From: Escherichia phage megetsur
DNA: 42,132 bases
Sequence record: MN850608.1
Reading direction: 5' to 3' (one strand)
Every line of letters starts with the position of its first letter. Within the stretch, counting starts at the first letter, position 1. The notes beneath the pieces were generated by a model, which did no database searches, had not been told where the DNA came from, and saw only the letters and a program-made list of their open reading frames with translations. The position numbers and the translations under genes are program-made. Positions 8,660 through 41,853 of the stretch are shown piece by piece.

Positions 8660-11125
8660 ATGGCAATTAGAGCACAGGTGATTGACGTTGAGACCGAGAA
8701 CCACGAGTGGTATGGGGAGCTGGCATCGCCGCGCTGCCCGGATAACTACGTGGTGATGCAGGGCCAGCGTGACTGTGTGCTGACCAAGGATGGCTGGGTG
8801 TTCTACGAGCGCGAGGAATATCGGTACAGTTCGAGAGAGGATTGGTTGCAGAACAAGAGCCTGCACCTGCATCCCGACACGAACATTCTGGTAGCCCACA
8901 ACGCGCCGTATGAATTGAGTTGGTGGTTCGAGCATTACGGTGACGAGTTCATCGCCTTCCTCAAACGAGGTGGCCGTGTATTCTGTACGGCGTATGCTGA
9001 GTATCTGCTGACGCACCAACAATCCCAGTACCCATCCTTGAACGAGACAGCACCGAAGTATGGTGGTACTCACAAGGTGGATGCAGTCAAGGCAATGTGG
9101 GAGTCGGGATACCTGACCAGCCAGATTGACCCTGAGCTGCTGAGCGAATATCTGTCCGGGCCGTCCGGCGATATTGAGAACACGACCAAGCTGTTCGTTG
9201 GTCAGTGGGCTGAGCTGACGAAGCAGGGCATGTTGCCAATGGCACTGACCCGGTTCGAAGGTATGCTCATGTGGGCGTACATGATGCACGCTGGTCTGCA
9301 CGTTGACCGCGAGGTTGCCGAGCGCAACCGCCGTGAGTTGCAAGATGCAATCAGTGGGCTGACTGATACGCTGCTGAGTTACCTGCCAGCCGACATGCCA
9401 CAGGAAGCGCGTGACCAGTTCAAGTTCACGTCAGCTTACCACATGAGTGCGTTCGTGTTCGGCGGCGTGATGAAGTACAAGGCGCGAGTCGAGCGCCGGG
9501 ATGGGGATGGCAATCTCATTTACGTCAAGGTGGATGCACCACTGTTCAAGCGTGGCAAGGACAAGTGGGTCAAGCATACCAACGAGTGCGAGTGGGATGC
9601 CGAGACCGGGCTATGGTATGACCCGGTTGAGAAGGTACACCAGACCATCTACACCAGTGGGAAGAACAAGGGTGCGCCCAAGTTCGAGAAGCTGGCAACG
9701 GATGAAGTGGATACCAAGTGGGGTGAGGTGCTGTTCCGAATGCCGGGCCTCCTGCGTGTGCAGGACAAACGGGCGAAGGAGATTGCAGATAACCTCGAAT
9801 GGGAAGACCCGAAGCGACCGGGCGAATACCTACGGCGCACGGGTGACTGGGTTGGTAAGCGCAGGCTTGCCGATGGCAGTCCGGTATTCAGTACGGCGGG
9901 TGAGGTGCTGGACATTCTGGCAGCGCGTAAGATTCCCGGCGTGGTGGAGATTGCCGACCGAGCCAAGGCACAGAAAGACCTCGGCACTTACTACCTGAGC
10001 GAGACGTTCGATGAAGATGGGAACGTGACTGGCCAGTCGGGGATGATGCAGTTCATCCAGCCGGACGGTATCGTACACCACACCATCAACATGACCGCGA
10101 CGGAGACGACGCGCCTATCATCGGCGCGACCTAACAGTCAGAACTTGCCACGTAAAGGCACGAGTAAAGTTAAGCAGATGTTCACCTCCCGCTTTGGTGA
10201 AGGTGGCCGCATCGTTGAGGCTGACTACTCGGCACTGGAAGTGGTGGGGCTGGCCGGGTTCAGCAAGGATAAGAACCTGATTCGTGCATTGCTCGACGGT
10301 ATCGACATGCACTGTATGCGTCTGTCAGCTCAGCTCAACGAGCCATACGAGGACGTGCTTAAGAAGTGCAAGGATGAATCCCATCCTGACCATGCACGAT
10401 ATAGTCAGATGCGTACTGACATTAAGCCGAAGGCGTTCTCATATCAGTATGGTGCAACAGCGCGAGGCATTGCGTACTCGACTGGTTGCTCTGAGGAAGA
10501 AGCTCAAGCGTTCATCGACAACGAGAAGGGTCTGTTCCCGGAAGTTGAAGAATGGTTCGACTCGGTTATCTTCCCAGCCGTAGAGAAAAGTGGACAGAGC
10601 AATGTGTTCAAGGAGCAGGACGAGAACGGAAGATGGCAGGTGTATCGCCGTGGTCACTTCCGGTCGCCGGGTGGAACTTGTTATTCATTCCGTCAGTACG
10701 AGAAATGGAACAAGGCGGCGCGTGCTCACCTGATGGAATACAAACCAACTCAGATGCGTAACTATCCGATTCAGGGTGAGACCGCATTTTGGGTACAGGG
10801 AATCGGTGGCCTGCTGTTCCGCTGGCTGCTATCGAACGACTTCTTTGGTGGGCGTGTGGTTCCCATCAACCAAGTGCATGACGCATTCTATTTCGACATT
10901 GCACCTGACTGCCCTCACGAGTTCTTCGTTGGACTCAAGGCAATCATGGAGAGCATCCCGGAATACTATAACCACGTATGGCCAGAGTATAACCTGACAG
11001 TGCCGTTCCCGGCAGAGGTGGAAGCAGGGCCAAGCATGTACGAGAAGCACCACGTAGAGACGACAGCCGATGAAGTGCTGGAGTTTAAGAGACAATTCCT
11101 GACGAGTAAGGGTATCGCATTATGA
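8660..11125 (+). CDS. DNA polymerase, family A (T7 gp5-like)
   Basis: Motif A DYSALEV, motif B RTDIKPKAFSYQYG, motif C VHDA; alternative GTG start at 8636. Confidence 0.93.
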   Translation: MAIRAQVIDVETENHEWYGELASPRCPDNYVVMQGQRDCVLTKDGWVFYEREEYRYSSREDWLQNKSLHLHPDTNILVAHNAPYELSWWFEHYGDEFIAFLKRGGRVFCTAYAEYLLTHQQSQYPSLNETAPKYGGTHKVDAVKAMWESGYLTSQIDPELLSEYLSGPSGDIENTTKLFVGQWAELTKQGMLPMALTRFEGMLMWAYMMHAGLHVDREVAERNRRELQDAISGLTDTLLSYLPADMPQEARDQFKFTSAYHMSAFVFGGVMKYKARVERRDGDGNLIYVKVDAPLFKRGKDKWVKHTNECEWDAETGLWYDPVEKVHQTIYTSGKNKGAPKFEKLATDEVDTKWGEVLFRMPGLLRVQDKRAKEIADNLEWEDPKRPGEYLRRTGDWVGKRRLADGSPVFSTAGEVLDILAARKIPGVVEIADRAKAQKDLGTYYLSETFDEDGNVTGQSGMMQFIQPDGIVHHTINMTATETTRLSSARPNSQNLPRKGTSKVKQMFTSRFGEGGRIVEADYSALEVVGLAGFSKDKNLIRALLDGIDMHCMRLSAQLNEPYEDVLKKCKDESHPDHARYSQMRTDIKPKAFSYQYGATARGIAYSTGCSEEEAQAFIDNEKGLFPEVEEWFDSVIFPAVEKSGQSNVFKEQDENGRWQVYRRGHFRSPGGTCYSFRQYEKWNKAARAHLMEYKPTQMRNYPIQGETAFWVQGIGGLLFRWLLSNDFFGGRVVPINQVHDAFYFDIAPDCPHEFFVGLKAIMESIPEYYNHVWPEYNLTVPFPAEVEAGPSMYEKHHVETTADEVLEFKRQFLTSKGIAL

Positions 11126-16395: not shown

Positions 16396-18828
16396 GTGGA
16401 TTTACTTGCAGAGCAGATTCGACTTGAAGAAGAAGCGCGAGCCAGACACCGCGAGGGCTGGCTGGATAATATCAAAGAGGCGATGGCCAGTGGCCGCGCC
16501 GGGTCGGTGCCGTTGCTCCAGCGTATGATGGTTGAGGCTTATCCTCTGGTCGAAGCTGCGATGCAAGAAACCCTGAGCGAAACGACCCGTGGATATGGTG
16601 CGCAGTACCGGACGTACATGCGTGAGATTGGCACCAAAGCGTGTGCCTCTCTCGCACTGAGCATGGCGGTGTCCGGTGCTGCGTCGGAGCAGGCGGTACT
16701 GAGTCTGCTCAAGAGCATGGGCAAGGCACTGATGGCTGAGGTGGTGTATCTCCGGGCGAAGCAGACCGGGCCACAGCAGGCGGCGTACATGGAGCGCGTT
16801 AAGCAGGACGTGAAGAAGTCTCGCTCGAAGTCAGCGAACCACGTCTACAACAAAGCGCGTGCGTCGGCGGCGAACGTTGGGGTAGAGATTGATGTGCTGC
16901 CGCAGCGTGCGCTGATTACCATTGGCAAGCTGATGATGAAGTGCGTCGAGCCAACTGGTCTGGTGTCCACGATTCGCGTCGGCGGCAACCAGCGCCAGCG
17001 CGGTACGGCACACTTCGCACTGCACGAAGATGTGCTGGCTACGATGAACGACTGGCTGGACATGCCGCGTGCTGATGGCATGTGCTGCCCACCGCTGATT
17101 ATCCCACCGAAGCAGATTGCCCCGAACGGTCGCAGCGGTATGTGGCATTCCGATGGGCAGGCAGCGATGTACCGGGTCATGAGTCGCATGAACCACAAAG
17201 GGTATCGTGCATTGAACGTTGACCCGACCCCCGTTATAGAGCCGTGTATGATGCTCAGCAGCGTTCCGTACCGAGTTAACCCAATGGTACTGGAGTTCCT
17301 GCGAACGAACCGTACAGGCGTTATGGGGCTGCCTGTGCCACCCCGTGAGCCTACACTTCCGTTCACCATCCCCGCTGGTGTGAGCTTTGCACAGTACATC
17401 AGCAAGTTCCCACCAGAGATGCAGCAGCAGATGGATGCCGAAGCTCACGAGTACAAGGTGAAGACTCGCTTGTATTACAATGAGTTGCGTAAGTTCACGT
17501 CGCAGATGCTGGCGTTGAATGGTGCAGTCAAAGAGGCAGACAGGTATGCGCAGTACGATAGGATTTATCTCCCGACTTACGCCGATACGCGGGGCCGAAT
17601 TTATTATTCTTCGACCCTTAACCCTCAGTCTATCGACGCGGTGCGAGCGCTGCTTGAGCTTGCGGAACCAGTGGCTCTCGGAACTGAGGGGCTGTTCTGG
17701 CTCAAGGTTCATGTTGCGAATTGTTTCGGATATGACGCAACAGACTTCGACGACCGGGCGGCGTGGACGGACAAGACACTCCCCCGACTACGTGAGGCGT
17801 GCCGTCTTCCAGAGGCATTTGATTCGTTCTGGTCAGAAGCCGATAGCCCTATCAGCGCGTGGGCTGCCTCTGTTGAACTCATTCGCGCTATCGACTCAGG
17901 AAGTCCTGAGACTTATCCCTGCCGAGTGGTTACGCAATGGGACGCTACCTGTTCAGGATTACAGCACCTCAGTGCGATGCTACGAGATGAAGTTGGCGGT
18001 GCTGCTGTCAATCTTATCAATAGCGTGGGAAGAAAAGCAGACATATATCTCAAGACGGCAGCAGCGGCGATGCAGGCTCTTGAAGATAGTGAGGCGCAGT
18101 CACCGACGCAGATGGGTACGTGGCTTGTTTCAATCGGCATTGTCCGGGCGATGGCTAAGAAGCCAGTGATGACCTACGTGTACGGGGCAACCCGGCACGG
18201 TATGGTGGACTACTACTGCCTGTATCTGCGAGAGAACCGGGTCAAGCTGCCGGACGGCAAGAGCCTGCTGGAGTGTGCGCAGTTCATCGCAGAGTTCATG
18301 TGGAATGCAATCCCTCGCGTTGTGCCGAAGGCGGCAGAGCTGATGGCATGGTTGCAGGCTATCGCGGTTGAGGCGGCAGCCAACGGCGAGTACGTGGAAA
18401 TCATTGCACCATCAGGGTTGCGGGTGGTTAACCTGTATCAAGCCAGCAAGGAGACGATGCTCAACAACATCAACCTCATGGGTATCCACAGCATTAAGCT
18501 GCGCGAGTATCTGGACAAGCCGGACGGTAGGAAGTGTGCCGCTGCGATTGCTCCGAATTTCGTACACGCCATGGATGCCAGCCACATGATGAAGGTGTTG
18601 TGGGAGATGTGGAATAACGGGGTGTACATGGTGTCCATCCACGACTCGTTCGGGGTGGCGGCTGCACATGCCGGGTTACTCCACAAGGTCATTCGTGAAA
18701 AGTTCGTACAGATGTATGAGCAACATGACCCAATTCAACAACTTGCTGTACGATACAATGCTGTTGCACCTGAACGGGGCAATCTGGATATCCAGCTTGT
18801 GAAACAATCAAGCAAGTTTTTCTGCTGA
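16396..18828 (+). CDS. single-subunit DNA-dependent RNA polymerase (T7-type)
   Basis: DATCSGLQHLSAMLRDEVGGAAVNL and HDSFGV match T7 RNAP catalytic motifs; GTG start with AAGGAG upstream. Confidence 0.95.
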   Translation: MDLLAEQIRLEEEARARHREGWLDNIKEAMASGRAGSVPLLQRMMVEAYPLVEAAMQETLSETTRGYGAQYRTYMREIGTKACASLALSMAVSGAASEQAVLSLLKSMGKALMAEVVYLRAKQTGPQQAAYMERVKQDVKKSRSKSANHVYNKARASAANVGVEIDVLPQRALITIGKLMMKCVEPTGLVSTIRVGGNQRQRGTAHFALHEDVLATMNDWLDMPRADGMCCPPLIIPPKQIAPNGRSGMWHSDGQAAMYRVMSRMNHKGYRALNVDPTPVIEPCMMLSSVPYRVNPMVLEFLRTNRTGVMGLPVPPREPTLPFTIPAGVSFAQYISKFPPEMQQQMDAEAHEYKVKTRLYYNELRKFTSQMLALNGAVKEADRYAQYDRIYLPTYADTRGRIYYSSTLNPQSIDAVRALLELAEPVALGTEGLFWLKVHVANCFGYDATDFDDRAAWTDKTLPRLREACRLPEAFDSFWSEADSPISAWAASVELIRAIDSGSPETYPCRVVTQWDATCSGLQHLSAMLRDEVGGAAVNLINSVGRKADIYLKTAAAAMQALEDSEAQSPTQMGTWLVSIGIVRAMAKKPVMTYVYGATRHGMVDYYCLYLRENRVKLPDGKSLLECAQFIAEFMWNAIPRVVPKAAELMAWLQAIAVEAAANGEYVEIIAPSGLRVVNLYQASKETMLNNINLMGIHSIKLREYLDKPDGRKCAAAIAPNFVHAMDASHMMKVLWEMWNNGVYMVSIHDSFGVAAAHAGLLHKVIREKFVQMYEQHDPIQQLAVRYNAVAPERGNLDIQLVKQSSKFFC

Positions 18829-35603: not shown

Positions 35604-35909
35604 ATGGCATCCGTGAATAAGCAGCTCGACGGGCTGCACCGGATGCTGGTGGAGTATCTGTCCGACCGCTTGGCCGACGCTCGTAGGAAAGATGAACACG
35701 GCAATATCATCGAACCTATGGCGGCGGCTGAGCTGTCCGTACTTCGCCAGTTCCTGAAAGATAACGGTATTCAGGCTGATAAAGACCACGCCGACGATTT
35801 ACTCGCGCTGCAAGAGCAGCTCAATAACGAGAAAACGGAAGCAGGTCGTAAAGATATCATGTCTGCTGCCATCAACTCAATCGCAGAAGATAGCGGGATG
35901 ATGCACTAA
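35604..35909 (+). CDS. terminase small subunit
   Basis: 101 aa directly upstream of the large terminase; AAGGAG RBS. Confidence 0.55.
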   Translation: MASVNKQLDGLHRMLVEYLSDRLADARRKDEHGNIIEPMAAAELSVLRQFLKDNGIQADKDHADDLLALQEQLNNEKTEAGRKDIMSAAINSIAEDSGMMH

Positions 35910-37669
35910 TGGATTTACAACGCCGCATGGTGATGGCAGGAATCGTTCGCGCTCACTACGAGAACAACTTCCCGCTATTCCTGCATGACTACTTCGCATG
36001 GCTGGGCTTTGACCTCACTGAAATGCAGCTCGACATTGGCCGCTACATGGCCGACAGGACGCTCAAGAACAAGTGCGTCATGGCGCAGCGTGGTGAGGCA
36101 AAGTCCACCATCGGTATTGCTCGCGCTCTGTACGAATTTGTGCAGATGCCGAACGCCACTGTCCTGCTTGTGTCCGGTTCCGACGACTATGCTGGTACGC
36201 TGTCGCACGCTATCGTGTCGGCTATCATGCAATGGGAACGTCTGGAATGGCTTAAGCCAGAGACTCGCGCTGGCGCACGTACGTCATTTACTGACGGCTT
36301 CGACGTGCATCACGCCTTCCGTATCCCTGACAAACAACCCTCTGTAAAAGCGGTCGGTATCTTCGGCCAGTTGCAGGGGAACCACGTATCGCTGTTGATT
36401 GCCGATGACGTGGAGACTACCAGTAACGGTAGCTCTCCTGCCAACCGCGCCCGTATCAACACCCTGACCAAAGAGTTCGCGGCTATCGCCAACGATGGTG
36501 CAGAGATTCTGTACCTCGGCACGCCACAGACTCAAGACTCCATCTACAACACGCTCCCACAGCGTGGCTTCGACGTTCGCATCTGGCCCGGTCGTTTCCC
36601 AACGGTTGAGGAAGAAGAACGCTACGGCGGCTGTCTGGCCCCGTGGATTAAGCAGAAGATGGAAGGCCACCCTGAGCTGCGTACCGGACACGGTATCCTT
36701 GGGAACCGTGGCGCACAGACTGACCCGCAACGCTACTCCGAAGAAAAGCAGTTGCAGAACGAACGAGACTACCAGCAGGCAGGCTTCCAGTTGCAGTTCA
36801 TGCTGGATACGTCGCTGTCGGATGCGCTCAAACAAACGTTACATCTCAAAGACTTAATCTTCTTCCACGGCTCAACGCAGTCTGCGCCGGAGGTTCTGCA
36901 TTGGTCGAACCACCCGCGCCATGCCGCCGAGCTGCCACTGGATTTCCCACTGGCTCGTGCTCAGCTATTCTTGGCTGCTGATTTCTCGGACACTTATGTA
37001 CCATTCGAAAATACCTCGGCGTTTCTTGACCCTGCTGGTGGTGGGTCGGACGAATCAGTTATCATTGCCACCGCTTCTGTCGGCCCGTTTATCCACGTCA
37101 TCGGTATGCACGTCTACCACGGCGGCCAGACGGAGGAAAACATCAAGGCGGCGGTAGAGTGGCTCGCTGAAACCGGGGTTAAACGGCTGGTCATTGAGGA
37201 TAACATGGGCCACGGCACCGTGACCAACATGTACCGAGGTGAGATTAAGCGCCAGAGCTTGACGATTGGCTGTGAAGGCGTGTATTCGTCCGGCCAGAAA
37301 GAGGTGCGTATCATCAACCGCCTTGGCCCAATCATGCAGCGCCACCGTGTAGTTGTACACTGGTGCGTTGTTGAAGAAGACCTGCGGCTGTGTCGCGGGA
37401 TGAACAACGGTGGTCGAGAGTTCAGCCTGTTCTGGCAGCTCCAGAACCTGACACAAGACCGTCAATCCATCCCACACGATGACCGTATCGAAACCCTATC
37501 TGCTGCCGTGTACCTGCACGCCGAGGTGCTACAGCAGGACGAACATGAAGAAGCTGCCAAGCGCGAGACGGCTGCCGCACGCGAGTTCCTTGCCAACCCT
37601 ATGGGTTACGATGACTCGAAGTGGCGTAGCCATAAACCTGTGCGCGGCACGCGACGGAGAATCAAATAA
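35909..37669 (+). CDS. terminase large subunit
   Basis: 586 aa, same length class as T7 gp19; P-loop-like RGEAKST near the N-terminus. Confidence 0.8.
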   Translation: MDLQRRMVMAGIVRAHYENNFPLFLHDYFAWLGFDLTEMQLDIGRYMADRTLKNKCVMAQRGEAKSTIGIARALYEFVQMPNATVLLVSGSDDYAGTLSHAIVSAIMQWERLEWLKPETRAGARTSFTDGFDVHHAFRIPDKQPSVKAVGIFGQLQGNHVSLLIADDVETTSNGSSPANRARINTLTKEFAAIANDGAEILYLGTPQTQDSIYNTLPQRGFDVRIWPGRFPTVEEEERYGGCLAPWIKQKMEGHPELRTGHGILGNRGAQTDPQRYSEEKQLQNERDYQQAGFQLQFMLDTSLSDALKQTLHLKDLIFFHGSTQSAPEVLHWSNHPRHAAELPLDFPLARAQLFLAADFSDTYVPFENTSAFLDPAGGGSDESVIIATASVGPFIHVIGMHVYHGGQTEENIKAAVEWLAETGVKRLVIEDNMGHGTVTNMYRGEIKRQSLTIGCEGVYSSGQKEVRIINRLGPIMQRHRVVVHWCVVEEDLRLCRGMNNGGREFSLFWQLQNLTQDRQSIPHDDRIETLSAAVYLHAEVLQQDEHEEAAKRETAAAREFLANPMGYDDSKWRSHKPVRGTRRRIK

Positions 37670-39054: not shown

Positions 39055-39406
39055 CATCCACTCGCGTATGGGTGCAGTGGAGGCTCGTATGCAGACCGTA
39101 GAACTTCGACTTGACAAGCACGAGGTACAAATCGCCACTCTTGAAAAGGGCGATGCTGCAATGATTTCCAAGCTGGCTGAGAACGACCTCCGCTGGCAGA
39201 CGGTTCAACAGCAGCTCCTTGTGGTTGAGCAAATTCAGGACATTCAAAAGACTATGAGCCATATCGGTAAGTTGTTTACGGCGGCGGCTCACGCTGTCAA
39301 ATGGTGTCTCTTAACTGCATCCCTGTGTAGCGGTATCTACTTAGCAATCAAGGCTGGTGACTTAAGCTCACTGCAAGCCTTCATCACTACACTACTGGGG
39401 ATGTAA
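39023..39406 (+). CDS. coiled-coil protein with C-terminal hydrophobic segment; possible holin or lysis accessory protein
   Basis: 127 aa; C-terminal AVKWCLLTASLCSGIYLAI; sits between the lipoprotein and the endolysin. Confidence 0.4.
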   Translation: MTEAKKEPSPNIHSRMGAVEARMQTVELRLDKHEVQIATLEKGDAAMISKLAENDLRWQTVQQQLLVVEQIQDIQKTMSHIGKLFTAAAHAVKWCLLTASLCSGIYLAIKAGDLSSLQAFITTLLGM

Positions 39407-39942
39407 TGACTAACTTTGAAATCTGTATGCGGTTCACCGGGCTGGCAGAAGGTGGTTACACCAAGCTGCCCGGCGATACCGGAGGGGAAACGAATCATGG
39501 AATTAGCGACGCTCGTGATGGCAAACTGGATGGCAGAGCTTGTGGTGTCCCTACTGGGCTTGGCGGTACTATTTGCGTGCCTATCAAAGCCCTCACCAAA
39601 GCACAAGCCGAAGCAATCTATCGACGGGATTACTACGCCCCCATCCGAGGTGACGAGCTTCACCCTGCGATTGCATGTGCCGTGTTTGACTACGGTGTCA
39701 ACTCCGGTGTCTCCCGTGCGGCGAAAGCTCTACAGCGGGTATGCGGCGTTGCACAAGACGGGATTGTTGGCCCTGCTACCGTGGCAGCAGCCAAACGTCT
39801 GGAACCTCACTCCGCAGCAGCAGCCATCTGTGACCTTCGTATTGCGTTCCTAAAGGCTTCTACAGCCCCGACAGTGGTTCGCTATAGGGATGCCTTGGTT
39901 GCTCGTGCAAAACGCTGTAGCGCTTACTGTGCGACGCTGTAG
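39406..39942 (+). CDS. endolysin, glycoside hydrolase family 108-like catalytic domain with C-terminal peptidoglycan-binding domain
   Basis: LAEGGYTKLPGDTGGETNHGIS resembles the GH108 signature; C-terminal region resembles PG_binding_3; no N-terminal SAR/TM segment. Confidence 0.7.
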   Translation: MTNFEICMRFTGLAEGGYTKLPGDTGGETNHGISDARDGKLDGRACGVPTGLGGTICVPIKALTKAQAEAIYRRDYYAPIRGDELHPAIACAVFDYGVNSGVSRAAKALQRVCGVAQDGIVGPATVAAAKRLEPHSAAAAICDLRIAFLKASTAPTVVRYRDALVARAKRCSAYCATL

Positions 39943-40059
39943 GGGTATCCAAAAGCTGACGCAATGAACAGGCCGTGGGTGCAATACCCCGGCTTGAAAA
40001 TTGCACGTTTATGCTTGCCCCTCCCTCGACCCAAATGACCGCGCGTGCCCCCATAGCGT

Positions 40060-40530
40060 GTGCGCGGATTAGCCTCGCGACGTGCGCGATATTTGCTCGC
40101 GTGCGCTGCGCGGCGCGTCAAGAGGATTGCCTGCGTGCGGTATAGCTCGTGCGTGTCGCGTTTCATCGTCTGCCGTGTGGCGTGCTGTGCGCTGTCCTGC
40201 TGGCTGTGCTGTGCGGTGCTGTCCTATGGGGACGCTCTGCGCTGGCTGTGCGGTGCTGCGTGCTGCGCTCGGTCGGGCGGGTATCTGTCTCTTTTGCTCG
40301 CAAGCTCTGCGCCGTGGTGGTGCTGTGTGGTGGCGGTGGTGCTGCCGTGGTGCTGTCCTGTCTGCTGGCCTACTGTCTGCGCCGCCAGCTCTGCGCGTCA
40401 TGCTCTGCTACTGTGTCACCTGTCCTACTGCGTTCACTGGCTGCCGCCTGTCATCCTGTCGGATTCCATCCGTTGCCGTTCCGCGCTCGCTTGTTTCGGC
40501 TGCGCCGCGCTCGCTCTGCGTATCTAGCGA
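40060..40530 (+). repeat. strand-skewed G/T-rich low-complexity tract (A-poor on + strand)
   Basis: Reiterated GCTGTG, GTGGTG, CTGCGC units; three + frames and one - frame stay open, which is composition-driven and not coding. Confidence 0.7.
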
Positions 40531-40535
40531 TACTA

Positions 40536-40556
40536 TATCACTATAGACACTTTCAT
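40536..40556 (-). promoter_or_regulatory. copy D (inverted) of the 21-bp element ATGAAAGTGTCTATAGTGATA
   Basis: Exact reverse complement of 18857-18877; flank similarity extends to about 50 bp; the + strand here reads TCACTATAG, identical to T7 promoter positions -8 to +1. Confidence 0.4.
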
Positions 40557-40562
40557 AATTAT

Positions 40563-40583
40563 CTAATGATTACAGTAACTTAT
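40563..40583 (+). repeat. 21-bp direct repeat, copy 1 (CTAATGATTACAGTAACTTAT)
   Basis: Exact second copy at 40642-40662; contains palindromic core TTACAGTAA. Confidence 0.85.
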
Positions 40584-40641
40584 GACCTATCTGATAACGG
40601 TATTCTATCCAGTGTTGTGATTATCCAATCAAACTTTAATC

Positions 40642-40662
40642 CTAATGATTACAGTAACTTAT
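40642..40662 (+). repeat. 21-bp direct repeat, copy 2
   Basis: Identical to 40563-40583, 79 bp downstream. Confidence 0.85.
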
Positions 40663-40683
40663 CACTTTTCTTGAAAATAATAC

Positions 40684-40713
40684 TTGCAAACTGTTTTGGT
40701 TATGTGCTGTAAT
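40684..40713 (+). promoter_or_regulatory. sigma70-type promoter P0 (TTGCAA-N18-TGcTGTAAT)
   Basis: -35 TTGCAA at 40684-40689, extended -10 TGCTGTAAT at 40705-40713. Confidence 0.5.
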
Positions 40714-40785
40714 TCATCACGTCTAAAGGCACTAGCCCAGTAGACACAGACAGACGGTAGCATCGCTCTTTAACAATCTGGTGTG

Positions 40786-40814
40786 TTGACAAGGCAAGCT
40801 CACTATGCTGTAAT
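40786..40814 (+). promoter_or_regulatory. sigma70-type early promoter P1 (TTGACA-N17-TGcTGTAAT)
   Basis: Consensus -35 TTGACA, 17-nt spacer, extended -10 TGCTGTAAT. Confidence 0.6.
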
Positions 40815-40922
40815 GCTTCCAGTCAGCCAGACAAGCCAAATAGTGATGGATAAACACGTTAACACCCGCGTAGGCTAACTGGTACGGTTTAATTAACTCA
40901 GAACGGGCGCTGATTAAATCGG

Positions 40923-40951
40923 TTGACAGGATGAAACGAGTATGCTGTAAT
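40923..40951 (+). promoter_or_regulatory. sigma70-type early promoter P2 (TTGACA-N17-TGcTGTAAT)
   Basis: Same architecture as P1. Confidence 0.6.
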
Positions 40952-41002
40952 ACACACCAGATTGACAGGGCAGCAAGCCAGTCAGTCAGAAGTAAAAAGT
41001 AG

Positions 41003-41031
41003 TTGACACGCTGAATACGATGTGATGTAAT
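41003..41031 (+). promoter_or_regulatory. sigma70-type early promoter P3 (TTGACA-N17-TGaTGTAAT)
   Basis: Same architecture as P1 and P2. Confidence 0.6.
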
Positions 41032-41039
41032 CAGCACCG

Positions 41040-41463
41040 AGTTGAAAGGTTGCAAAACAACCTGCTCTGAGTGAACGTAAACAGGCCACGTAGTGTCTCG
41101 GCCTCATGGGTATCCGGCGCAGCTAGGAACTGGTGAGGGCACCGCCGAAAGGCAATAGGGGTAGCGCCCGGTGCGATGGGAACGGAGAAGCGCGATAGAC
41201 GCAGCGCAGTATCAGCACAATCCCGAACGTCTTATAAGGCGCGGAGTGAAGCGGGTAGGTAGGCAAGCTGGAAACGGTGAGCCGGACTGCTGGAGGACTC
41301 CTGAGAGTGGATGCAGACAATATCCACGGCGCGAAATGGGCGGGGCGATTTTTCAGGGTAGTGAATCCGACAAGCCAATCAATGCCAACGAGTGCAGACT
41401 GTACGGCGCGTCACAATGGGTTCACTATCCACCTGAAAATAGCCAACAACTGGAGAAATAACT
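41040..41463 (+). other. long purine-rich non-coding leader between the early promoters and the first early gene
   Basis: About 420 nt with no RBS-preceded ORF; G/A-rich on the + strand; small hairpin GGTTG-CAAAA-CAACC at 41043-41057. Confidence 0.5.
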
Positions 41464-41853
41464 ATGTACCGTATCTATGCAAGCGCATATCGTCCGAATA
41501 ACGCTGAATGTGTTAATCTGGCGCTTCATTGCAAGGCACTGCGAACGGTGCAGGATATGTTCGGAGTGATTCCGGTCACGCTGACAGGCAAGTTCGACAA
41601 TCAGTATGAGTTGAGCATGGTATTTCCTGTCGATGGAATCTACGAAATCAGGAAGGCGGTATCGCTTTTCTGTAAGGTTCTTGAACAGGACTGCATCATG
41701 GTAGTGACCAAAGATGATGATGCAATCTTCATGGATTCACCGTATCCGGGCAAGCCTGCTGGCAAGCTGGTCAGCAAAACAGGCGAGCAGATGGAAGCCG
41801 GGCAGCATACCGCTTGGACTTATGACGGTGAACTGTTTTGGGTAGTGGAGTAA
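41464..41853 (+). CDS. hypothetical early protein (129 aa), first gene after the promoter cluster
   Basis: ATG 41464 with GGAG 9 nt upstream. Confidence 0.55.
   Translation: MYRIYASAYRPNNAECVNLALHCKALRTVQDMFGVIPVTLTGKFDNQYELSMVFPVDGIYEIRKAVSLFCKVLEQDCIMVVTKDDDAIFMDSPYPGKPAGKLVSKTGEQMEAGQHTAWTYDGELFWVVE

Follow-up and report, generated by a model that had tools for sequence, protein, structure and literature searches.

In Escherichia phage megetsur (sequence record MN850608.1), the DNA that separates the last late from the first early gene includes a stretch, at positions 40060-40530, which contains hardly any A on the given strand and is nevertheless open in several reading frames. The question is what such a tract represents. 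The original prediction, made from the letters alone, considered terminal-repeat or concatemer-junction sequence, a packaging or replication-initiation structure, or a structured non-coding RNA. In the following, "the window" denotes the whole analysed stretch of 42,132 nucleotides, and the features discussed are collected in Table 1.

The window is a circularly permuted genome of a Bonnellvirus (Autographiviridae, J8-65-like), a podophage of the T7 supergroup. Megablast and blastn searches with the tract matched 14-19 phage records. All classified ones belong to Bonnellvirus (Autographiviridae), and a few matching records have a higher-rank or no taxonomic assignment. The genes of the window include those of a portal and a family A DNA polymerase as well as those of the T7-like RNA polymerase and the T7-type terminase. 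The endolysin and SAM lyase genes are located side by side with 1.5 kb of non-coding DNA between them, and the tract is found within this DNA. As stated in the original description, it is flanked by the endolysin (GH108) and the AT-rich promoter region, the latter being 5' of the SAM lyase gene. The two ends of the window do not overlap, and the predicted terminal-repeat sequence is present as a single copy. The database records of the relatives have start points that were cut at arbitrary places. The BHUENT7 record contains a tandem duplication of about 120 nt at its circular break, which looks like an assembly overlap and not like a terminal repeat.

Table 1. Features of the window that are referred to in the text (a full stop in the strand column denotes no orientation)
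Feature	Position	Strand	Remark
T7-like single-subunit RNA polymerase	16396-18828
Large terminase, T7-type	35909-37669
GH108 endolysin	39406-39942		Last late gene
Conserved non-coding block, CCCCGGCTTGAAAATTG ... CCTCCC	39987-40025	+	Adjoins the repeat on the left
Predicted direct terminal repeat, single collapsed copy	40026-40282 (right boundary 40274 or 40282)	.	Homology to J8-65
Conserved left half of the repeat, alternating purine-pyrimidine (CG/TG) runs	40026-40170	.
Hypervariable, microsatellite-like (GCTGT/GTG)n right part of the repeat	40171-40274	.
TATCTGTCTCTTTT, candidate class II-like pause/termination signal, then T run	40282-40295	+	Inside near-invariant 40275-40295
Second hypervariable, GTG/GGT-rich slippage zone	40296-40355	.
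C/T-rich, A-poor leader with reiterated CTGTC, CTACTG, CTCTGCG	40356-40530	+
AT-rich segment with two 21-nt repeats (40563, 40642), then promoters	40531-41031	+	Outside the finding
Four early host-type promoters (TTGACA or CTTGCA, about 17 nt, TGCTGTAAT)	about 40676, 40785, 40922, 41002	+
SAM lyase, anti-restriction	41464-41853		First early gene

Composition and coding potential of the tract

The 471 nucleotides at 40060-40530 comprise 30 A, 143 C, 163 G, and 135 T, which corresponds to 6.4% A. When all 42,132 nucleotides are scanned, the 470-nt window with the lowest A content is the one that starts at 40056 (6.0% A), while the A or T fraction of the other 470-nt windows has a mean of 0.221, a standard deviation of 0.025, and a minimum of 0.132. 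The AT skew in the tract goes down to -0.79. The A-poor DNA begins at about 40026-40040, a little to the left of the previously assumed position 40060, and A amounts to about 7% over 40026-40530 compared to 22% elsewhere in the window. The tract is also of lower complexity than its composition accounts for. It contains 306 distinct 6-mers versus 356 +/- 8.5 in dinucleotide shuffles, and the other windows have 422 on average and at least 373. The original description as G/T-rich, A-poor, low-complexity DNA is therefore borne out. Likewise, the short units it had named are all present (GCTGTG five times, GTGGTG five times, and CTGCGC seven times), the latter two in numbers above nearly all shuffles, and TRF reports only weak short-period arrays in the tract. 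The complexity is low because two slippage-prone microsatellite zones sit between conserved functional blocks.

Open reading frames of 155, 154, and 187 aa are present on the plus strand and one of 110 aa on the minus strand, and the tract contains only one, three, and one stops in the plus frames and two, six, and four in the minus frames. In six relatives (forsur, Kc261, HHU8, ROV85, Lidtsur, and glasur) the records contain CDSs for a "hypothetical protein" overlapping the homologous tract. Based on these long frames in three plus and one minus frame and on these annotations, the tract could be regarded as the gene of a small Cys/Ala/Leu-rich protein, as is done in several database records. 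However, the long frames and the few stops result from the depletion of A on the plus strand. The stop codons TAA, TAG, and TGA as well as their reverse complements TTA, CTA, and TCA each require an A on this strand, and open frames are thus expected from the A depletion alone, as had been proposed. In addition, the overlapping CDS calls are discordant in start, frame, and even strand. Nearly all indels inside 40060-40527 compared to 12 close relatives are non-multiples of three, the only two exceptions (9 and 6 nt) both belonging to ROV85, and frame-breaking indels were seen in every pairwise comparison of the tract. A conserved gene with a consistent frame in the relatives, which would have argued against the original prediction, was looked for and not seen. 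A Pfam search found nothing above the cutoff for the tract, and in J8-65 the left half is annotated as a terminal repeat. A coding gene was rejected given the frame-breaking indels and the missing Pfam match, and we consider its existence hardly credible. Judged by these comparisons, the tract is non-coding.

The predicted terminal repeat and its boundaries

The closest known counterpart of the tract is that of J8-65 (KM247287), the type species of Bonnellvirus, whose record is linear and contains a repeat_region at 1-259 and again at 40723-40981. We verified that the two 259-bp copies are identical. The paper behind this record contains no statement of how the repeat was determined. The J8-65 repeat starts with TCGACCCGAAGG directly after CCTCCC, 73 nt past the endolysin stop codon. 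The same left junction, CCTCCC/TCGACCC (here and below the slash marks the boundary), is found in the window at 40025/40026. CCTCCC/TCGAC is invariant in 17 of 17 aligned Bonnellvirus intergenic regions, the next two bases varying in one relative, and the upstream CCCGGCTTGAAAATTG is likewise invariant in all 17 aligned Bonnellvirus sequences. The conserved block to the left of the junction may therefore provide the context in which the terminase recognises or cleaves the DNA, similar to a pac site. Further likenesses between the window and J8-65 are the homologous sequence at an equivalent position (73-83 nt past the endolysin stop), the A-poor and G/T-rich composition, the CG/TG runs in the left half, and a TATCT(G/A)TCT(C/T)TTTT sequence after the repeat. 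However, the two phages are only about 71% identical over the first 170 nt, and their hypervariable parts cannot be aligned.

The right boundary is less well defined. Two alignments place the right end of the J8-65 repeat (...GTATCGGTGGCT/GGGCGCGGGGCTATCTATCTTTTTT) differently, one at about 40274 and the other at about 40282 of the window, which leaves an ambiguity of about 8 nt and a predicted repeat of 249-257 bp compared to the 259 bp of J8-65. A metagenome contig of 1,589 nt from a close relative (L028) comes from the endolysin side, crosses the repeat, and ends with ...GGTCGGGCGGGT, equivalent to position 40282 of the window. This is the base before ATCTGTC and it is located inside a block that is invariant among the relatives. 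Differences between strains would not be expected to break a contig at such an invariant point, whereas a physical DNA end would look like this, and the contig end, although that of a single contig, is suggestive of a right boundary at 40282. The analogy to the repeat boundaries of T7 and SP6 points to 40282 as well. In J8-65, the annotated boundary is found 12 nt before ATCTATC, in contrast to the contig end of the window's clade directly before ATCTGTC. A search for contig ends at the predicted termini revealed this one end at the 40282 equivalent and no contig starting at 40026. In a viral collection, the same search gave one match, which was internal, and two matches in a genome collection were rejected as contig ends, being chance 21-mer matches in unrelated DNA.

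The homology to the repeat of a relative with a shared boundary supports the prediction that 40026 to about 40274/40282 is a direct terminal repeat that would be present twice on the virion DNA. The region is also non-coding and lies past the last late gene and ahead of the early promoters, and the genome encodes both a T7-type terminase and a single-subunit RNA polymerase, as is the case for phages with such repeats. The presence of only one copy in the window is consistent with the common collapse of the two copies into one in short-read assemblies (PMC10438801). The papers on Kc261 and on the Danish-wastewater phages do not discuss genome termini. Of the originally suggested terminal repeat or concatemer junction, the part up to about 40274/40282 is thus upheld by the homology to the J8-65 repeat and by the conserved signal that follows it, while the right half, up to 40530, has to be removed from the repeat and would be a unique leader of the left genome end.

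Conservation divides the repeat into two very different parts. At 40026-40170, 127 of 145 columns (88%) are invariant among 13 close relatives. For comparison, the invariant four-fold sites amount to 58 of 89 (65%) in the neighbouring endolysin gene and to 16 of 41 (39%) in the preceding gene (Fisher p = 6e-5, and 1e-8 for the pooled sites). The left half is more conserved than the neighbouring four-fold sites and, by this comparison, seems to be under selection on its sequence. It is rich in alternating purine-pyrimidine runs: 55 nt are part of runs of at least 8 nt, a value reached in 0 of 1000 shuffles, and the six runs of 8-11 nt within 40040-40156 classify the DNA, by the sequence criterion, as Z-DNA-prone. 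Such runs reach up to 20 nt in J8-65 and are absent from T7 and phiKMV. The right part of the repeat, 40171-40274, has only 37% invariant columns with gaps in 39 of 125 columns, and differs by 10-nt and other indels even among close relatives. Outside the repeat, the second hypervariable zone is still more variable (14% invariant columns, gaps in 66 of 79) and contains TRF arrays of period 3 and period 11 at 40311-40355. The following leader has 72% invariant columns. Here, CTGTC is found nine times, CTACTG three times, and CTCTGCG four times, and 0 of 300 dinucleotide shuffles reach these counts.

A candidate pause signal bordering the predicted repeat on the right

Between the two hypervariable zones, whose columns are invariant to only 37% and 14% and which contain many indels, the block GGGCGGGTATCTGTCTCTTTT (40275-40295) is almost unchanged with 19 of 21 columns (90%) invariant among 13 close relatives. 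Its position corresponds to the right repeat boundary of other phages. According to their sequences, the 160-bp repeat of T7 ends with ...CCCT/ATCTGTTACAG, the 174-bp repeat of SP6 with ...GGGCTA/TCTGTTCGTTTGCTC, and the repeat of J8-65 with ...GGCT/GGGCGCGGGGCTATCTATCTTTTTT, where ATCTATCTTTTTT begins 12 nt past the annotated boundary. We checked that ATCTGTT is present at the right boundary in both T7 and SP6. Class II pause/termination signals have the common core ATCTGTT, and one of them is located at the T7 concatemer junction (10.1101/2021.01.11.426313; 10.64898/2026.02.12.705533). The T7 polymerase strictly requires this core and does not tolerate any change (10.1101/2021.01.11.426313). 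Directly before the core there is an A, C, or T, and termination requires a U-rich stretch after it (10.64898/2026.02.12.705533). In the window, the core-like sequence has a T before and TCTTTT after it and lies 0-8 nt past the predicted repeat boundary. The exact core ATCTGTT is absent at the block, the window having ATCTGTC (six of seven positions) and J8-65 ATCTATC (five of seven). The polymerase of the window is a distant relative of that of T7 and may differ in signal specificity. ATCTGTC is also found within genes at 9150 and 35656. If the motif acted as a terminator, ATCTGTY might be expected to be rare on the coding strand, but no such depletion was seen, ATCTGTC being present three times on the plus strand versus 1.6 times expected. 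By its position and conservation only, the TATCTGTCTCTTTT block resembles a concatemer-junction signal, and it is not a proven member of class II.

In T7, the order of the elements is the same: the last late gene is followed by the repeat with the ATCTGT-type signal at its right edge, short reiterated units, early host promoters, and the anti-restriction gene, and the T7-like RNA polymerase and T7-type terminase are encoded in the window as well. The leader at 40356-40530 is found where T7 has its short-repeat array, to the right of the terminal repeat, and the promoter layout parallels that of T7, in which phiOL and then A1-A3 are found within 405-750 (A1-A3 at 498-750), before the anti-restriction gene. 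However, the 160-bp repeat of T7 is unrelated in sequence and only mildly A-poor (15-17%), and T7 has the exact ATCTGTT without a T run in contrast to ATCTGTC followed by TCTTTT in the window. SP6, which belongs to another subfamily (Molineuxvirinae), is similar at the boundary. Its GGGCGTGGGCTA/TCTGTTCGTTTGCTC is close to the GGGCGGGTATCTGTCTCTTTTGCTC of the window, and the whole block GGGCGGGTATCTGTCTCTTTT is near the GGGCGTGGGCTATCTGTTCGTTTGCTC of SP6, whereas the repeat is otherwise unrelated and the A depletion weaker (11-19%). phiKMV, with a 414-bp repeat, and LIMEzero share the A depletion on the same strand (4-13% A over 1-750 and 6-18% A over 100-650, respectively), and LIMEzero has CCTCCC/TCGAC near the start of its record. 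In contrast to the window, phiKMV contains neither an ATCTGT-type motif after the repeat nor alternating purine-pyrimidine runs, and the LIMEzero record lacks a terminal duplication.

Taking these data together, the tract is most probably the non-coding concatemer-junction region of Bonnellvirus, composed of the collapsed terminal repeat, a pause-like signal, and a spacer. By analogy to T7, the phage's own RNA polymerase would read from the late genes across the single repeat copy in concatemers and would pause or terminate at the class II-like TATCTGTCTCTTTT at the right edge of the repeat. In T7, the paused polymerase-lysozyme complex is reported to contact the terminase proteins gp18/gp19 and thereby to start maturation and packaging (PMC3276506). 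In the same way, the paused complex could mark the junction for the T7-type terminase. The repeat would then be duplicated by nicks at CCTCCC/TCGACC on the left and GGGT/ATCTGT on the right together with strand-displacement synthesis, so that each packaged genome would carry a copy at both ends. On infection, the left end would enter the cell first. The leader (40283-40530) together with the AT-rich segment would form the spacer of about 650-980 bp by which the predicted terminus is separated from the early host promoters of the SAM lyase.

Alternative readings and the cause of the A depletion

The ALTERNATIVES tested were a coding function, a structured RNA, G-quadruplexes, Chi sites, unstructured single-stranded tails, and a restriction-proof leader. 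The tract being conserved in blocks, non-coding, and probably reached by read-through transcription of the late genes, it could be imagined to be a structured RNA, or to act in replication or packaging as a G-quadruplex or triplex. However, the structured RNA of the original prediction is not borne out: a search of 39800-41600 against Rfam gave no match at E <= 1, and the minimum free energy is weaker than that of dinucleotide shuffles on both strands (z = +1.41 and +2.36). The suggested G-quadruplex prediction did not find a four-run motif in the tract, which has only three G runs of at least three. With regard to a triplex, the strand is a mixture of G, T, and C and neither homopurine nor homopyrimidine. 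Together with the failure of the relatives to maintain the sequence of the hypervariable zones, this makes a role as structured RNA, G-quadruplex, or triplex very improbable. It is somewhat less far-fetched but still improbable that the tract is an origin of replication or an R-loop zone in which primers form, comparable to the secondary origin near the left end of T7. T7-like polymerases can prime DNA synthesis, as they do at the primary origin of T7, the AT-rich segment with its two conserved 21-nt repeats lies next to the tract, and the GC skew is +0.16 across 40100-40400, positive on the non-template strand. However, this skew is modest and becomes negative after 40356, G clusters are missing, and a k-mer search of the window did not reveal a repeated motif resembling a phage promoter. 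In addition, nothing separates an origin from the junction role. Two further candidates were discarded. A cluster of Chi sites against RecBCD is not present, the tract containing no exact Chi and one copy with one mismatch while the six genomic Chi sites are located elsewhere. Selection for unstructured strands that would help the annealing of resected tails was dismissed as well, the z-scores with DNA parameters being inconsistent across the phages (+1.7 and +0.3 for the plus and minus strands of the window, -0.1 and +1.9 for J8-65, +0.4 and -2.2 for phiKMV, and negative values for T7 and SP6).

The concatemer-junction reading does not by itself account for the scarcity of A, which amounts to 6-9% in all 17 Bonnellvirus relatives. 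The left ends of J8-65, LIMEzero, and phiKMV are likewise poor in A, those of SP6 and T7 more mildly so. In every case, the depletion starts at the terminus, continues through and past the repeat, and stops shortly before the early promoters. At four-fold sites, the genes of the window contain 12.8% A, 27.7% C, 31.5% G, and 28.0% T, and the tract 7% A, 31% C, 34% G, and 28% T. The skew of the tract (T>A, G>C) has the same direction as the strand asymmetry at four-fold sites but is more extreme. The simplest reading is therefore that the tract is in part unconstrained, slippage-inflated DNA near a strand-specific mutational equilibrium. This reading is incomplete because the conserved blocks are equally A-poor and the depletion is about twice that of the four-fold sites. 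It is possible, though we would not expect it, that everything outside the repeat boundaries and the pause block is a functionless spacer at the mutational equilibrium (T>A, G>C) of the non-template or leading strand, inflated by slippage. The nearly identical C, G, and T fractions of tract and four-fold sites would fit such a spacer, as would the short-unit indels typical of slippage in the two hypervariable zones and the occurrence of the same composition in genera whose tract sequences cannot be aligned. However, the conservation of 40026-40170 (88%) and 40356-40530 (72%) exceeds that of the four-fold sites (65% and 39%), and much of the tract is therefore constrained in sequence and yet A-poor. 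Furthermore, A is at about half the four-fold level, the GC skew reverses within the tract, and the four-fold composition is also shaped by codon preference and thus not a clean neutral reference.

Adaptive explanations fare worse. The A-depleted strand could be a safe leader, which would enter the cell first, before the SAM lyase has been made, and from which restriction and modification sites and spurious promoters, all requiring A on both strands, would be excluded. Judged by its homology to J8-65 and T7, the tract would form the leading end, and the first downstream gene is the anti-restriction SAM lyase. In addition, the tract has about half as many tetramer palindromes containing A/T as other parts of the genome (9 versus a mean of 17.5 per 505 nt), and GATC is absent from the tract. 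However, GATC is missing from the entire genome (0 versus 161 expected), as are CCWGG and about 25 six-base palindromes, all without A depletion. The skew is not needed for the avoidance of sites because the whole genome avoids them without it. The G/C-only palindromes are even enriched in the tract (28 versus a mean of 10.6), and an EcoBI-type site is located at 40932 in the same entering segment. We therefore regard a safe leader as quite unlikely. A bit more room, although still little, can be given to the idea that the near-absence of A is, instead of drift, a selected, sequence-independent property of the junction or entering end. It would extend over about 500-750 bp, from the left terminus up to the early promoters, in Bonnellvirus, LIMEzero-like, and phiKMV-like phages, although their sequences are not alignable. 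One possible form of such a property could be an A-poor template that conditions the pausing of the polymerase. In Bonnellviruses, the negative supercoiling behind a paused polymerase could convert the alternating CG/TG tracts, which lie 110-250 nt upstream, to Z-DNA or melt them. If true, Z-DNA formation or melting upstream of the pause would couple the cleavage at both repeat boundaries. Concerning the family-wide A depletion of the entering end, the evidence at hand does not demonstrate anything beyond mutational asymmetry together with slippage.

With respect to the concatemer-junction region, the tract is a so far unannotated example of a well-known type of feature. For about 14 deposited Bonnellvirus genomes, the physical ends can now be placed, as a prediction, at about 40026 and 40274-40282 of the window's numbering. 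The records of these genomes are circularly permuted and lack the second copy of the repeat, and several of them contain spurious "hypothetical protein" calls over the repeat sequence. The analysis also nominates a short pause/termination signal for a single-subunit RNA polymerase other than that of T7, which could serve as a compact terminator. Such a signal could also help to define a minimal packaging cassette. In practice, the results are of value for both the annotation and the engineering of these phages.

Alternating runs in the terminal repeat and records of relatives

The left half of the terminal repeat, which is predicted for the window and annotated in the Bonnellvirus type phage J8-65, contains dense runs of alternating purine-pyrimidine CG/TG steps in both (Table). 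By their sequence, these runs are Z-DNA-prone. They are present in the terminal repeat of the Bonnellviruses and weakly present in LIMEzero, whereas the repeats of T7 and phiKMV lack them. A 21-nt pattern of the left end of the repeat also matched two contigs of the genome_contigs collection (L029 and L030). Both are unrelated bacterial contigs without similarity around the 21-nt match, and the matches are due to chance, as is to be expected in a collection of 596 Gb.

Enterobacter phage BHUENT7 (L004/L005, PV874197) has a tandem duplication of about 120 nt at the circular break, inside the repeat region, which is probably an assembly overlap. The size of Kc261 is given as 42,203 bp in the paper and 42,432 bp in the record, and the hypothetical proteins annotated over the terminal repeat in several records contradict one another.

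Elements between the tract and the SAM lyase gene

The AT-rich segment directly after the G/T-rich tract contains a pair of exact 21-nt repeats, which has no further copies elsewhere in the genome and is kept in relatives. These copies could represent a phage-promoter, origin or protein-binding element, and the position of this candidate element is comparable to that of phiOL in T7. The four early host-type promoters have almost identical counterparts in J8-65. A simple consensus scan did not pick them up because their -10 element is non-canonical. The last early promoter and the start codon of the SAM lyase gene are separated by a leader that is rich in purines, spans about 420 nt and is almost identical in J8-65, although the genome-wide identity is about 73%. 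Rfam gave no match for this region, which may form a 5' leader that is structured or undergoes processing.

Features and sites in the window and in J8-65
Feature	Position	Remarks
CG/TG runs, window	40040-40156	left half of terminal repeat
CG/TG runs, J8-65 (L006)	35-127	left half of terminal repeat
CTAATGATTACAGTAACTTAT	40563-40583, 40642-40662	79 nt apart
Early host-type promoters	about 40676-41031	TTGACA or CTTGCA, ~17 nt, TGCTGTAAT
Leader	41040-41460	
Chi (GCTGGTGG)	4846, 24200, 25044, 35645, 37034, 38480	+ strand
CAGCTG	1-42132	0 observed, 33 expected
CTGCAG	1-42132	0 observed, 23 expected
CCCGGG	1-42132	0 observed, 22 expected

Restriction-type and Chi sites across the genome

Restriction-type sites are avoided to an extreme extent across the entire window (1-42132): GATC is absent (about 161 expected), as is CCWGG, CTAG is found six times instead of 36, and about 25 six-base palindromes are missing or almost missing. 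Avoidance of type I sites was not seen in the window, which contains eight EcoKI-type and ten EcoBI-type sites. The window has six Chi sites, all of which are located on the + strand; the - strand has none. By chance, about 0.6 per strand would be expected. RecBCD coming in at the right genome end would read Chi in this + orientation.
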